A stretch of DNA of 31,825 nucleotides, from NCBI GenBank assembly GCA_964529955.1, contig CAZGZM010000001.1:6510-38334 (forward strand), in the 5' to 3' direction. Shown in pieces: positions 3 to 7,485 of the stretch. A program made the position numbers and the translations under genes. This DNA is from an uncultured Thermotogaceae bacterium (GTDB lineage: Bacteria; Thermotogota; Thermotogae; Petrotogales; Kosmotogaceae). Within the stretch, counting starts at the first letter, position 1; every line of letters starts with the position of its first letter. The notes under the pieces are model-generated. The model did not search any database and was not told where the DNA came from. It saw nothing but the letters and a program-made list of their open reading frames with translations.

Positions 3-527
3 GAGGAAGGGTACCTTTTTACATACTGCCCGCCAGCAAGATCGGAAGAAGAAAAGAACATACTGAGAAAAGAATTGAAAATGGGAAATATCGACTCTAT
101 TGGAACTGATCATTGTCCATTTAAGAAAAATGAAAAAATCGAGAATAGAGATGATTATTCAAAAATGCCAAATGGTATTCCTTCTCTTGGATTAGCTTTT
201 TCCTTGCTTAATAATCTATGTATAGATATAAATCAATCAATAAGATTAATGAGCGTGAATCCAGCTAAAATATTTGGATTGTTTCCAGAAAAGGGTTCTC
301 TGTTACCCGGAACAGATGCAGATATAGCAATTATTGAAAATGAAAAAAACTTTGAAATAAATGCTTCATTAGGAAATTGCGATTATTCTCCATACAAAGG
401 CATTAGAGTTAAGGGTAGAGTTGAAAAAACAATAACTCGTGGTAGAATCACTTATGAAAATGGTAAAATCTTAACAGATAATTGCAAAGGAAAATTCATT
501 CACAGAAACCCAATAATGTGGGGGTGA
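3..527 (+). CDS. Dihydropyrimidinase/hydantoinase-family cyclic amidohydrolase, C-terminal part (5'-truncated by the window)
   Basis: The frame is open from base 3 (EEGYLFTYCPPARSEEEKNILRKELKMGNIDSIGTDHCPF), so the ORF-track start at 75 is internal. Motifs: CPPxR, TDHCPF (metal-binding Asp), PNGIP, NPAKIFGL, KGSLLPGTDADI, GRVEKTITRG. Confidence 0.88.
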   Translation, partial: EEGYLFTYCPPARSEEEKNILRKELKMGNIDSIGTDHCPFKKNEKIENRDDYSKMPNGIPSLGLAFSLLNNLCIDINQSIRLMSVNPAKIFGLFPEKGSLLPGTDADIAIIENEKNFEINASLGNCDYSPYKGIRVKGRVEKTITRGRITYENGKILTDNCKGKFIHRNPIMWG

Positions 528-1842: not shown

Positions 1843-2928
1843 ATGAATTTAAAGGTAAATATCTGTGGACTAGAATTGAATAACCCTGTAATGCCTGCTT
1901 CAGGACCTTTGACAGGTGACTTGAATAAGATGATAAAACTTGAAAACTCCGGCTTAGGTGCAATGGTAACAAAAACTATTTCAACAAAGGCAGCTGTTGT
2001 TCCAAGGCCATGTATTGTTGGAACTAATAATTATATTCTAAATACTGAGCTATGGTCAGAATACAGTCCAGAAAAATGGGTGTCCGAGATTTTACCTGCT
2101 TATAAAGAAATTACAAAAATTCCTCTAATAATAAGCATGGGATATTCACCTGATGATCTTTCATCTCTTACTCCTAAGTTATCTCAATTTGCTGATGCAT
2201 TTGAAATATCGACTCATTATGTTTCTGAAGATCCTGATCTTTTTAAAAAAATTATTGATTCAATTAAAAACTATTCAGATAAACCCGTCTTCATAAAGTT
2301 CGATCCTACAATTCCCAGTCCGGAAAAAATGGCTCAAGCTGTTCAAAATGCCAATGGAGATGGAATTGTAATTATGAATTCACTGGGTCCTGTTTACCCA
2401 TTAAATATATCTGAAAAAAATTCTCCATTAGGAAGTTTAAATGGTTTCGGTTGGATTTCAGGTCATGTGATTAAACTACTGGCTTTAGCTCTTATTAAAA
2501 GAGTAGGAAAATCTTGTGATCTTCCTATAATAGGAGTTGGAGGAATAAGTACTTCAAAGGATGTAATAGAATTTATGATGGCTGGAGCCACCGGTGTACA
2601 GTTATTATCTTCAGCAATGATAAGGGGCAAAAAAGTATTTTCTGATATAATAAACAATTTACCTAATGAACTTAAAAAACTAGGATACAATGATATAAAT
2701 GGAATAATTGGAATAGCAAAGAATTCTAATGAAGAAGAAACCTTTATTAAAAAAACTCCAGTTATTAATCTAAGCAAATGTGTTAAATGTGGACTTTGCG
2801 TTAGAGCTTGTCCATATTATGCGTTAACAATGACTGATGAGGGCATTAAACTTAACCCTGAAGAGTGCTTCGGCTGCGGATTATGTCAGTCAAGATGCCC
2901 AACAAAGGCTATTTCTGGAGTTTTTTAA
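1843..2928 (+). CDS. Dihydroorotate/dihydropyrimidine dehydrogenase (PreA-like) FMN barrel with C-terminal 2x[4Fe-4S] domain; atypical active-site loop
   Basis: N-terminal GLELNNPVMPASGP and KTIS; PVFIK; GIVIMNS; GWISG; PIIGVGGI; AGATGVQL. Ferredoxin motifs CVKCGLCVRACP and CFGCGLCQSRCP. Confidence 0.85.
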   Translation: MNLKVNICGLELNNPVMPASGPLTGDLNKMIKLENSGLGAMVTKTISTKAAVVPRPCIVGTNNYILNTELWSEYSPEKWVSEILPAYKEITKIPLIISMGYSPDDLSSLTPKLSQFADAFEISTHYVSEDPDLFKKIIDSIKNYSDKPVFIKFDPTIPSPEKMAQAVQNANGDGIVIMNSLGPVYPLNISEKNSPLGSLNGFGWISGHVIKLLALALIKRVGKSCDLPIIGVGGISTSKDVIEFMMAGATGVQLLSSAMIRGKKVFSDIINNLPNELKKLGYNDINGIIGIAKNSNEEETFIKKTPVINLSKCVKCGLCVRACPYYALTMTDEGIKLNPEECFGCGLCQSRCPTKAISGVF

Positions 2929-2936
2929 AAACAAAG

Positions 2937-4286
2937 TTATTTTTGAACAACTTTGTTTCTACCTGATTCTTTAGCTTCATACAAGGCTTCATCAGCTATT
3001 TTTATCAGCTCATTTTCATCCTTTGCATCGTATTGAGGATATGACGTGCATCCTATACTTACAGTAAATTTTATTACCTGTTTACCATGCTGGGTGACAC
3101 TTTCTTGAATGATTCTTCTGATTCTTTCTGCTACATCTTTAGAATCCTCTTTAGAAGCACCAGGCAAAACTATCACAAATTCTTCTCCACCGTATCTGAT
3201 AACAAAATCCCCTTCTCTTAAACCGATACGAATAAATTTAGCAATGTTTCTTAAAACTTTATCGCCAACCGTATGTCCATAAGTATCATTTATGCTTTTA
3301 AAATGGTCTATATCAAACATTAGTACTCCCAGGGGCTCTCCTGTTCTTGATGATCTCTTATACTCTTCGACAAGTCTGTTCAAACCAAAATGTCTATTGT
3401 ACAATCCAGTTAATTGATCAAACGCAGCCAAAGTCTGTAGTTGATTATATGTAATTGAATTTCTTAAGGCTAAAGATAAAGTATTCAAATGCAGCTCTAA
3501 ATTTGTTTTTAAATTTGAATTAAAAGATTCCTTGAAAGCAAGTACAACTATTCCCAATGAAACATTTTTATAAGAAATTGGTTCAATTCTTATTTCATTT
3601 GGAACAAATTCCAAAAGCAATCCATCTATTTTTATTTCTTTTGGTAAATGAATGGTTTTTGATAAATTTTTGTAGTATGACTCTGTAATCAAATCATTAT
3701 TAATAAGTTTTTCAGGATTTTTAATTCCCCTTGAAGAAACTGGAACAAGCTCCCCGTTTTGTTCAATTATTAAACATCCAGCATCAGAATTCATATGTTC
3801 AAGAAGTTTATCTACTGCTTTTCTAGCTAACACTTCCAATTCAATTTGAGTTGAAAGAATTTGATTAAATTCCTTAACTTCTTTTTCTGTTTTCATAAAT
3901 CCTGATAAAGTCATTATAAGCTCGTTAAAGGAATGAGCCGATTCTCCTATTTCATCATTTGAATCCACTTCTATATAACATTCGTCATTAACGCAATCCT
4001 GTATAATTGAAGACCCCATACTATCACTAATTTTATTTTCAACTTTATTCATATGTTTAGCAAGAATACGGAGACGCTTACCAACAACAATTTTTGAGAT
4101 GAAAAAATTAAATGCCCCCACAGCTAATCCGGCTAAAATACATAAAAAGAAAAACAAGGGAGAAAGAGCGATTTCATTTGATACACCTAAAAGCATTACA
4201 AAAAATGGAAATACAATTCCTATTCCCAAACCAAAAGCTATCATAAATATGCCAAGATCCAGAAAAACCTTTTTAGTGAGCCTCAT
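2937..4286 (-). CDS. Membrane-anchored diguanylate cyclase (2 TM - HAMP - GAF-like - GGDEF)
   Basis: Two N-terminal hydrophobic helices; HAMP signature DEIGESAHSFN; DQLTGLYNR, MFDIDHFKSINDTYGHTVGD, an intact RYGGEEF active site and an RxxD inhibitory site (REGD). Confidence 0.93.
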   Translation of the reverse strand: MRLTKKVFLDLGIFMIAFGLGIGIVFPFFVMLLGVSNEIALSPLFFFLCILAGLAVGAFNFFISKIVVGKRLRILAKHMNKVENKISDSMGSSIIQDCVNDECYIEVDSNDEIGESAHSFNELIMTLSGFMKTEKEVKEFNQILSTQIELEVLARKAVDKLLEHMNSDAGCLIIEQNGELVPVSSRGIKNPEKLINNDLITESYYKNLSKTIHLPKEIKIDGLLLEFVPNEIRIEPISYKNVSLGIVVLAFKESFNSNLKTNLELHLNTLSLALRNSITYNQLQTLAAFDQLTGLYNRHFGLNRLVEEYKRSSRTGEPLGVLMFDIDHFKSINDTYGHTVGDKVLRNIAKFIRIGLREGDFVIRYGGEEFVIVLPGASKEDSKDVAERIRRIIQESVTQHGKQVIKFTVSIGCTSYPQYDAKDENELIKIADEALYEAKESGRNKVVQK

Positions 4287-5828: not shown

Positions 5829-6647
5829 TTATTCAATTCCGGCATATTCTGCTAATGTGTTCATTAGTATTTCTAATGGTTCTATGCCTTCAACATTTTT
5901 ACCTAATCTTCCTAAAAGATTTCCTAAAGCGAATTGATTAACATTTCCTACTACATTTCCTTTAAATCCCTGAACATTCATTCGAGGACCCTCTGCACCA
6001 ATATTTCCCTGTTGTCTTCCAATTTGATTCACAGGTATATTAGCTTTATTTCCGAGCTGTTGCCCTGTTATTTGGTTCTTAACTGTGCTTTGCACCTTAC
6101 TCTTAATTTGACTCTGTAGTTTTTCTGCTTGCTCAGGATCCATATTTTTCATCTTTTCCCATGCTTGTGGATTGTTTTCCTTAATATTATTCTTCATTGT
6201 TTCCACTTGTTTTTTTACTTGCTCTTGTACTCTATCAGAGATTTTATCAGTAAAATACTCCTGAATTCCCTCAACCTGGCTCACTGTTAGTGTTTCCTTT
6301 AATACATCCAAAATACCTGTTCTGTCTTCAAAATCTTCCTTTGCACCGTCTCTGAATTCTTCCACCGCTGCCTTTGCAGCTTCAATTTCTTCTTCTGTTC
6401 CATCTAGTAGTGCTGATTTATAATTTTCAAGTAGTTGGAATAATTCTGATTCATGAGCATCTCTTTCTTCAATTTGTTCGTTTAGGGCATTGTAAATTGT
6501 TGTTGCTTGCTCCTGAGTTAATCCTATACTGTTAAAAATATCTAAAAGGGCTATTTCACCAGTTAATTCTGCTACTTCTACCGGTGTTGCCAGTGTAAAT
6601 GTTCCTATTGAAACTACTGCTAATAATAACACTAAAAATTTCTTCAT
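5829..6647 (-). CDS. Exported helical protein with two LTxxQ motifs (Spy/CpxP-like?) and a Gln/Asn-rich region
   Basis: Signal peptide MKKFLVLLLAVVSIGTFTLA; LTQEQ (aa 43-47) and LTVSQ (aa 120-124); acidic coiled-coil character; RBS GGAGGTGG. Family assignment is tentative. Confidence 0.6.
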   Translation of the reverse strand: MKKFLVLLLAVVSIGTFTLATPVEVAELTGEIALLDIFNSIGLTQEQATTIYNALNEQIEERDAHESELFQLLENYKSALLDGTEEEIEAAKAAVEEFRDGAKEDFEDRTGILDVLKETLTVSQVEGIQEYFTDKISDRVQEQVKKQVETMKNNIKENNPQAWEKMKNMDPEQAEKLQSQIKSKVQSTVKNQITGQQLGNKANIPVNQIGRQQGNIGAEGPRMNVQGFKGNVVGNVNQFALGNLLGRLGKNVEGIEPLEILMNTLAEYAGIE

Positions 6648-6720: not shown

Positions 6721-7485
6721 TTATAATTTCCTTTGAATTTTTATCTTAGGTATTCCTACTGGTGCAAGGTAAACTACAAATTCTTCTTCACCATCTATAT
6801 CCATGACTTCATTCATCTGCTTATCACTAAATGCATCTATTGCGCAAATTCCTAATCCACCTCCCTCACAAGCAATATAAATGTTTTGAAGAACATGGCC
6901 CGCATCAAGTAGAACAAGTTTTGTTGAGTACTTTCTATATCTCAATTCTGTTCTGTATGGAATTGCGGTAAGCACATATGTAAATGGTGCAGTTCCAACA
7001 AAAACCTGACCTAAATTAGCTGATGTGACTTCATCTTTGAAATCTCCACCTTTAATAAGTTCTAATTTATGTTCATTAGCTAAATAATGATATATCCCCA
7101 TCTCTAATCCTTCTACATTCCTTATTATGGCATAACTTTCAAAGGGATGCCGTCCTCCTGCTGAAGGTACAGTTCTTAATGAGGAAAGTCCTTCATTGAG
7201 AATCATTTTTACTCTCTGACCAGCCCATAAAATAAATGCTAATTTTTCCAGACTAACAGGCTTATCTTTATAGACTCTAACACTTCTTCTATCCCATATA
7301 ATTTGAATTAAATCTTTATCATTAAGAATCTCAGGTTTTGGATCTGGCAACTTAATTATTTCTTTAGAATGATATTTTTTGAGAATCTCTGGTTTTAGAA
7401 CGCCTTTTTTTTGATCTGAAATAGCCTCCTCGCTCATTTCATCCCAGCATTTGTTTGTCATAACCTTTCTTTCTAAGTATTCCAT
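6721..7485 (-). CDS. SagB/ThcOx-family FMN-dependent dehydrogenase (nitroreductase fold), stand-alone
   Basis: IWDRRSVR, LRTVPSAGGRHPFESY, GIYHY, LLDAGHVLQNIY, GICAIDAF. Confidence 0.88.
   Translation of the reverse strand: MEYLERKVMTNKCWDEMSEEAISDQKKGVLKPEILKKYHSKEIIKLPDPKPEILNDKDLIQIIWDRRSVRVYKDKPVSLEKLAFILWAGQRVKMILNEGLSSLRTVPSAGGRHPFESYAIIRNVEGLEMGIYHYLANEHKLELIKGGDFKDEVTSANLGQVFVGTAPFTYVLTAIPYRTELRYRKYSTKLVLLDAGHVLQNIYIACEGGGLGICAIDAFSDKQMNEVMDIDGEEEFVVYLAPVGIPKIKIQRKL

Follow-up and report, generated by a model that had tools for sequence, protein, structure and literature searches.

In 2013 Barba et al. described, under the name 'dehydrogenase X1', a clade of the dihydroorotate/dihydropyrimidine dehydrogenase (DHODase/DHPDase) superfamily that is linked to hyuA, ygeW, ygeY, ssnA, xdhABC and yqeA (PMC4016543). 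It was not until 2025 that the reductive uric-acid (2,8-dioxopurine) pathway, which is relevant to gout and to the disposal of urate in the gut, was elucidated; a Life Metab paper of that year introduces UacX as a PF01180 protein that replaces YgfK beside SsnA in C. difficile, with reduced ferredoxin proposed as the donor (PMC12507026). According to the legend of its Fig. 2d-f, EcYgfK or CdUacX together with EcSsnA turns yanthine (2,8-dioxopurine) into ureidomethylhydantoin (UMH) and some 5-ureido-dihydrouracil, methyl viologen being the donor for the conversion by CdUacX and EcSsnA (PMC12507026). A Stanford preprint describes YgfK as specific for 2,8-dioxopurine among three xanthine isomers, and PydAc is known as a ferredoxin-dependent enzyme in which electrons reach the flavin mononucleotide (FMN) via Fe-S clusters (PMC7332683). 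Thermotogota are mentioned in neither of the two 2025 papers (the Life Metab article, PMC12507026, and the Stanford preprint). Here we analyse a uacX-type gene in a stretch of 31,825 nucleotides (G000:C1:6510-38334, hereafter the window) from an uncultured member of the Thermotogota, and consider it likely that this gene encodes a UacX-type 2,8-dioxopurine (yanthine/isoxanthine) reductase, i.e. the enzyme that dearomatises the substrate in the reductive, anaerobic breakdown of uric acid. Since the family has been known since 2013 and was assayed in 2025, what is new here is the Thermotogota member and its conserved Cys-less loop as a mechanistic question.

The gene occupies nucleotides 1843-2928 (+) of the window and its stop-free translation of 361 residues (P0001) joins an FMN barrel to a domain with two [4Fe-4S] clusters, as judged from the open reading frame (ORF), its translation, Pfam, NCBIfam and an AlphaFold2 model. 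The only Pfam domains in the 361 residues are a DHO_dh TIM barrel (PF01180, E 1.2e-37; residues 3-277, nucleotides 1849-2673, +) and a C-terminal ferredoxin domain (Fer4; residues 306-358, nucleotides 2758-2916, +), an FAD/NAD(P)H domain (Pyr_redox_2) being absent. The cysteines of both CxxCxxCxxxCP motifs (C313/316/319/323 and C342/345/348/352) are intact and invariant across 149 aligned relatives, and the alignment to class 1 dihydroorotate dehydrogenase (DHODH) retains K44, N67, K152 and N179/S180, whose counterparts in that enzyme we take to be FMN- and substrate-binding positions. All NCBIfam scores for the PyrD and PreA families remain far under the curated cutoffs, the highest being 173 bits for PyrD class 1 (cutoff 270), 169 for PRK07259 (cutoff 269) and 153 for PreA (cutoff 335). 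With the 149 relatives as input, the AlphaFold2 model reached a pLDDT of 96.6 and a pTM of 0.93, its confidence dipping only at residues 121-130 (mean pLDDT ~80). The best solved match of this model in Foldseek was pig dihydropyrimidine dehydrogenase (DPD, domains IV-V; E 1e-28, TM-score 0.89 on the query), which covers both the barrel and the Fe-S domain, followed by the class 1B dihydroorotate dehydrogenase (DHODB) of L. lactis (TMt 0.87). By sequence, phmmer found the closest solved proteins to be PyrD 1B (5ksw, E 1e-25; 1ep1, E 3e-23) at 26-28% identity.

The protein is set apart by a short loop, FEISTHYVSEDPD (2200-2238, +), in place of the E(L)NxSCP motif and the flexible catalytic loop. 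The first-pass annotation had reported the loss of the catalytic Cys and the pyrimidine-binding Asn from a loop some 10 residues shorter; its placement at nucleotides 2203-2241 has to be moved one codon upstream, and the loss itself was borne out by phmmer. Against PyrD 1B (1ep1, 5ksw), FEISTHYVSEDPD falls opposite a 22-residue DHODB segment with 9 gap columns, leaving both Asn and Cys without a counterpart; the NxSCP loop is replaced by a stretch that reads EISTHYVSEDPD and is at least 9 residues shorter. The distance from the end of strand β4 to the D-P helix cap is ~8 residues in the UacX-type protein versus ~17 in DHODB and presumably ~20 in pig DPD, and the overall shortening with respect to class 1 enzymes comes to ~9-12 residues. 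F120, E121, S123, T124, H125 and Y126 do not vary among 26 homologues that are 46-80% identical, giving the motif FE(I/L/V)STHY. A scan of relatives, in which each species was represented by one genome, retrieved 80 loci with identities of 44-80% in Thermotogota, Clostridium, Mollicutes/Izimaplasma, Bacilli and one spirochaete; FE.STHY recurs in 79 of them, across Thermotogota, Clostridium, Mollicutes and Spirochaetes, and the remaining locus has SAHY. The lack of the catalytic cysteine loop is real and conserved. Because FE.STHY is kept in 79 of the 80 genomic homologues and the ratio of nonsynonymous to synonymous substitutions (dN/dS) against a homologue of 80% identity is ~0.05, with dS saturated, the gene is not a pseudogene but is under strong purifying selection across its whole length; that it does not look like a pseudogene had been noted from the intact barrel and the two intact 4Fe-4S motifs. 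In an ungapped reading of the alignment from the invariant β4 Glu, S123 would take the position of the loop Asn, H125 that of Ser and Y126 that of the catalytic Cys; what speaks for the Ser/His/Tyr loop as a putative catalytic element is only its conservation.

The substitutions extend to other positions. Cys57 (codon 2011-2013, +; motif RPCI) replaces the Arg that is conserved after Pro in NxSCP-type enzymes, and is invariant in all 80 UacX loci; the 14 YgfK sequences compared all have Cys there too (KPCI/RPCI). Of 31 superfamily representatives with a Cys loop, 20 have Arg directly after the conserved Pro56; none of 66 Cys-less ones does, and these carry Cys, His, Asn or Tyr instead. The new pocket residues E69, W71, S123-Y126 and W204 are invariant, as are N67 and N179/S180. 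According to the secondary structure of the AlphaFold2 model, Cys57 stands at the base of a hairpin formed by strands 58-60 and 64-67, whose last residue, N67, is aligned to a substrate-binding Asn of DHOD; Cys57 is therefore probably near the substrate pocket.

The first-pass annotation had also noted a resemblance of the motifs SGPLT, RPCI and NTELWSE to AGPHT, KPCI and NTEWSTE of YgfK. These three are present in the E. coli YgfK sequence, and the correspondence was recovered both by BLASTP, which aligned residues 5-157 of the UacX-type protein with YgfK 44-186 (pairwise E 3e-5), and by hhalign of 14 YgfK N-domains (11 from Proteobacteria, 3 from Clostridia) with the UacX barrel (93.4% probability, E 2.5e-7, 258 columns, YgfK 43-405). 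The profile alignment pairs, from YgfK to UacX, GPAAGPHT with PASGPLT, KPCI with RPCI, NTEWSTE with NTELWSE, NMSVGY with ISMGY and TLSTMHGCPP with EISTHYVSEDP; a BLASTP pairing of FEISTHY with FNMSVGY of YgfK was rejected, given that the profiles match ISMGY to NMSVGY and EISTHY to TLSTMHGC. The paired YgfK motifs are conserved in all 14 sequences, including the 3 Clostridial ones, and the set common to YgfK and UacX can be written as GP..T, (K/R)PCI, N.EWS.E, S.GY and (I/L)ST(x)H. In hhalign no groups other than the Cys-less ones aligned with the N-terminal half of the YgfK domain; the NxSCP group matched just 130 C-terminal columns. As a separate observation, Clostridia also encode short forms of YgfK of 569-576 residues (L084:1084-2814 (-), L085:1486-3195 (+)), which match only approximately the first 425-447 of the 1012 TIGR03315 positions and are flanked by ssnA-like, hyuA-like or ygeY-like genes. 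They perhaps represent a third architecture of the dioxopurine reductase, possibly one that depends on ferredoxin.

The genomic context points in the same direction. On the contig the same-strand gene order is ygeY, a ygeW-like carbamoyltransferase gene, hyuA, ssnA and, as the last gene, the uacX-type one. The ygeY product scores 608 bits against an NCBIfam cutoff of 321 (equivalog level), and the YgeW-like carbamoyltransferase (OTCase) is 40% identical to E. coli YgeW. The ssnA-type gene (532-1839, +) encodes an amidohydrolase of 435 residues, the putative ring-opening partner (NF005540 SsnA, 422.5 bits, cutoff 444; next family 163 bits); its stop codon (1837-1839) is separated by 3 nt from the uacX-type ATG and a Shine-Dalgarno sequence, GGAGGG (1831-1836, +), lies within its end, so that the two genes are probably translationally coupled. 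Only the 3' part of hyuA (D-hydantoinase) is in the window (3-527, +), the gene continuing upstream across a run of N; a frameshifted or pseudogene hyuA was rejected, the split being an assembly gap, that is, a scaffold run of ~88 N (C1 ~6421-6508) just upstream of window position 1 (locus L002). We read the ORF as UacX because it matches both the description of 'dehydrogenase X1' and the published operational definition of UacX: a PF01180 barrel and a ferredoxin domain without Pyr_redox_2, next to ssnA and uricolytic neighbours, in a genome where no YgfK N-domain was found. The host is a ~80% complete metagenome-assembled genome whose relatives in the same genus are labelled Kosmotogales or Petrotogaceae bacterium; XDH-like genes (after xanthine dehydrogenase) and carbamate kinase are encoded on other contigs of this genome. 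A separate canonical PyrD with NLSCP is located on contig C5 beside a pyrC-like gene, for which reason a housekeeping PyrD identity of the UacX-type protein was rejected.

Among the relatives, 74 loci extend far enough upstream to be evaluated, and in 55 of them ssnA stands directly upstream on the same strand. Of all 80 loci, 43 have an XDH-like gene no more than 10 kb away, 41 have hyuA and 33 ygeY; YgfK was found at none of them. Clostridium spp. share the same ssnA-uacX(-xdh) core, with identical active-site motifs, at 47-51% identity. Of the 19 loci in which ssnA is not adjacent, at least 16 encode a threonine-synthase-like pyridoxal phosphate (PLP) enzyme immediately downstream, and in the genomes of unlinked copies SsnA is encoded elsewhere in 4 of 4 tested. 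Linked and unlinked UacX copies are interleaved within a single clade with 99% support, so that, with ssnA elsewhere in those genomes, a separate paralogue at the unlinked loci was rejected. In 151 Thermotogota genomes we counted UacX together with SsnA in 92, UacX only in 4, SsnA only in 4 and neither in 51, a tally that, related genomes being non-independent, does not amount to a statistical test. The co-occurrence with ssnA and the conservation of STHY, both named beforehand as checks on the first-pass annotation, came out in its favour. Its proposal of a different heterocycle, possibly a dioxopurine, finds support in the ssnA operon context and in the UacX biochemistry reported for C. difficile (PMC12507026); it was essentially right and already published at the family level.

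In a tree of 150 representatives (50% clustering) the xxHY-loop proteins form one clade with support 91, which bears out the distinct subfamily postulated earlier; it is distinct both from the clades with an NxSCP loop and from several Cys-less ones in which the loop is even shorter (ELVSY or ELPAY, for instance). Distant xxHY-loop proteins of archaea and Armatimonadota often have no Cys57. It is tempting to speculate, with somewhat less than even confidence, that UacX, the FMN domain of YgfK and many Cys-less short-loop sister clades make up a separate mechanistic lineage in which the mobile Cys loop was deleted and the acid/base role moved elsewhere. If true, candidates for that role would be, within the S-T-H-Y loop, the invariant His125/Tyr126, or else the residue that replaces Arg at position 57, Cys here and His in other clades; the arrangement would suit the reduction of C=N/amidine-type bonds in bicyclic or other heterocycles, and the ELVSY, ELPAY and other short-loop clades would be reductases of heterocycles yet to be named. 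Large clades of DHODH-like barrels with two [4Fe-4S] clusters and E-L-V-S-Y or E-L-P-A-Y loops (representatives P0143-P0220) have His or Cys at the Arg57 position, and some of them may correspond to the 'X2' of Barba. The host genome also encodes a third DHODH-like paralogue (G000:C30:2386-3285 (-)) with ELNFYYVP instead of the Cys loop and without an Fe-S domain; from this motif we would guess it to be of the NCBIfam 'dihydroorotate dehydrogenase-like protein' type.

The reaction itself is established in the literature for the C. difficile family member; we infer the substrate, the electron donor and the proton donor of the Thermotogota protein. Reduced ferredoxin or another low-potential donor would deliver electrons to the two C-terminal [4Fe-4S] clusters and from there to the barrel FMN and the substrate, the clusters reducing FMN presumably as in the ferredoxin-dependent PydAc (PMC7332683). 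A hydride would then pass from FMN N5 to C6 of 2,8-dioxopurine, and a proton could come from the S-T-H-Y loop, Cys57 or solvent. The S-T-H-Y loop together with Cys57, E69, W71 and W204 presumably remodels the pocket to fit a bicyclic substrate and provides another proton donor, namely His125, Tyr126 or Cys57; with a ring nitrogen and not carbon as the proton acceptor, the loop Cys would be less necessary. The unstable dihydro product would be handed to SsnA, whose hydrolytic ring opening would pull an unfavourable equilibrium, and HyuA, the YgeW-like carbamoyltransferase and YgeY of the same operon would continue toward diaminopropionate. No published mention of the Cys-less loop was found. 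The words 'cysteine' and 'proton donor' are absent from the Life Metab paper, and where it speaks of an 'active site', in three passages, it deals with UacY and XdhD (PMC12507026); the Stanford preprint was not searched for these terms.

Several observations weigh against the assignment as a UacX-type 2,8-dioxopurine reductase. The SsnA of this operon scores slightly under the NCBIfam equivalog cutoff, the XDH-like genes of the host are not at the locus but on other contigs, no ygeX was found in the ~80%-complete assembly, and an adjacent ssnA is absent in 19 of the 74 evaluable loci. Moreover, the assayed family member is that of C. difficile and none is from Thermotogota, orthology to this protein (Q181U4) rests on context, domain content and the operational definition of the paper, and the proton donor is presumably His125, Tyr126 or Cys57 as far as the alignments indicate. 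The likeness to the assayed C. difficile protein, drawn by description and not by sequence, leaves room for a Thermotogota UacX that is not isofunctional with it and reduces another purine-derived compound such as xanthine, uric acid or a hydantoin-type intermediate. To the same effect, the operon has a YgeW-like carbamoyltransferase rather than UacY, its relatives a ThrC-like PLP enzyme rather than YgeX, and Cys57 is frequently missing from the more distant archaeal and Armatimonadota xxHY-loop proteins. Yet the Clostridium spp. with the same gene core have identical active-site motifs, and the signature motifs are common to YgfK, with its specificity for 2,8-dioxopurine among three xanthine isomers; we regard a different purine substrate as unlikely.

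A ferredoxin-dependent dihydropyrimidine dehydrogenase of the PydAc/PreA kind would make the hydantoinase a dihydropyrimidinase and the M20 peptidase a ureidopropionase, and this is what public annotations of relatives suggest ('dihydrouracil/dihydrothymine dehydrogenase'), in line with sub-threshold NCBIfam matches to PreA (153 bits) and dihydropyrimidinase and with DPD as the best solved structural match. However, 153 bits compare with a cutoff of 335, as do 173 with 270 for PyrD; the catalytic Cys of NxSCP and the uracil-binding Asn are invariably absent, the clade is separate from the Cys-loop clades, and ssnA, a ygeW-like gene, an equivalog-level ygeY and, in relatives, XDH are the uric-acid set and not the Pyd set, all of which renders a pyrimidine enzyme very improbable. 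We give still less credence to a catalytically dead barrel that would do no more than transfer electrons, through Fe-S and FMN, as a subunit for another enzyme, for instance an XDH-like dehydroxylase. In favour of this reading, the canonical acid/base loop is gone, XDH-like genes are often near and the Clostridial XdhD has no FAD subunit; but N67 and N179/S180, aligned to substrate-binding residues of DHOD, are invariant together with E69, W71, S123-Y126 and W204, the strong purifying selection covers the whole gene, and CdUacX and SsnA alone convert yanthine. A UacX-type reductase of 2,8-dioxopurine is the assignment that we retain, and the proton-donor question leaves the picture of the pathway unchanged. 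The signature FE.STHY, (R/K)PCI and N.ELWSE separates UacX enzymes from dihydroorotate and dihydropyrimidine dehydrogenases, as which they are routinely annotated, and is usable for re-annotating such 'dihydroorotate/dihydrouracil dehydrogenase' mis-calls. This ferredoxin-type variant of the reductase is widespread in Thermotogota (96 of the 151 genomes sampled).

Some neighbouring features deserve mention. A GGDEF diguanylate cyclase gene (449 aa, window 2937-4286 (-)) meets uacX tail to tail, the stop codons being only 8 nt apart, and the purine operon therefore ends at uacX here; in relatives, by contrast, thrC-like and xdh genes follow. The threonine-synthase-like PLP enzyme (PF00291; TIGR00260 ~200 bits) was seen at L016:11089-12294, L033:10980-12314, L034:11077-12297 and ~35 other loci; in many Thermotogota clusters it directly follows uacX, and in Mollicutes-type loci it comes a few kb later. 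It is absent from the window, its best matches in the host genome being merely 33-34% identical. Clostridium clusters carry ygeX in place of this gene, whose product may substitute for diaminopropionate ammonia-lyase as a non-orthologous enzyme. Possible gene breaks were seen in the ssnA match of several genomes, e.g. G001 (Clostridium bovifaecis) C1:1274564-1275810, G176, G178 and G179, which contains a single in-frame stop codon (TGA, TAG or TAA) or falls into two pieces; most of these stops seem to be located right at its end. Farther along the window, nucleotides 6721-7485 (-) encode a SagB-type dehydrogenase of the nitroreductase family (TIGR03605, 128 bits, cutoff 78), whose scanned neighbours are not genes for ribosomally synthesised and post-translationally modified peptides (RiPP).

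Compared with the systems described so far, the Thermotogota locus agrees with 'dehydrogenase X1' as an uncharacterised clade that branches before PydA/PreA and has the gene context of this operon, a clade set up by phylogeny and synteny only (PMC4016543); the passages on it, in which no search aimed at the active site was made, leave the latter unmentioned (PMC4016543). With C. difficile UacX (UniProt Q181U4) the protein shares the PF01180 FMN barrel, Fe-S domain(s), the lack of an FAD/NAD(P)H domain and the position beside ssnA and hyuA in a uricolytic cluster, where that enzyme stands in for YgfK and works with an artificial low-potential donor. The C. difficile cluster differs in having UacY instead of the YgeW-like carbamoyltransferase, and the paper, in its description of UacX, likens it to PydAc with its two ferredoxin domains, whereas the Thermotogota protein has the C-terminal one only (PMC12507026).

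Class 1B PyrD (L. lactis 1EP1) is the best sequence match among solved structures and has the same FMN-binding Lys and Asn residues, but it has no ferredoxin domain, relies on PyrK as a partner and keeps the catalytic Cys loop. The DPD family (pig DPD, E. coli PreA, Clostridial PydAc) resembles the UacX-type protein in its barrel and C-terminal domain with two [4Fe-4S] clusters, through which electrons reach FMN; its N-x-S-C-P motif, which contains the catalytic Cys (residue 671, Cys671, of DPD), and its long mobile loop are both gone here. Further differences are the Arg after the conserved Pro, which is Cys here, Gly and Leu positions that have become Trp (W71, W204), and a pyrimidine instead of a purine gene context. 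YgfK of E. coli (DOPOR, NAD(P)H:2,8-dioxopurine oxidoreductase), at ~22-25% identity, is a protein of 1032 residues that uses NAD(P)H and contains a GltD-like FAD/NAD(P)H domain (Pyr_redox_2), Fer4_20 and DPD-type Fe-S domains absent from the UacX-type protein, and it keeps in its short loop (STMHGCP) the Cys that the UacX loop lacks. Nonetheless, YgfK catalyses the reaction that we infer for the Thermotogota enzyme, adjoins ssnA, and has in its N-terminal ~400 residues a homologous barrel with the short (I/L)-S-T-(x)-H loop, GPxxGP(H/L)T and N.E(L)WS.E.

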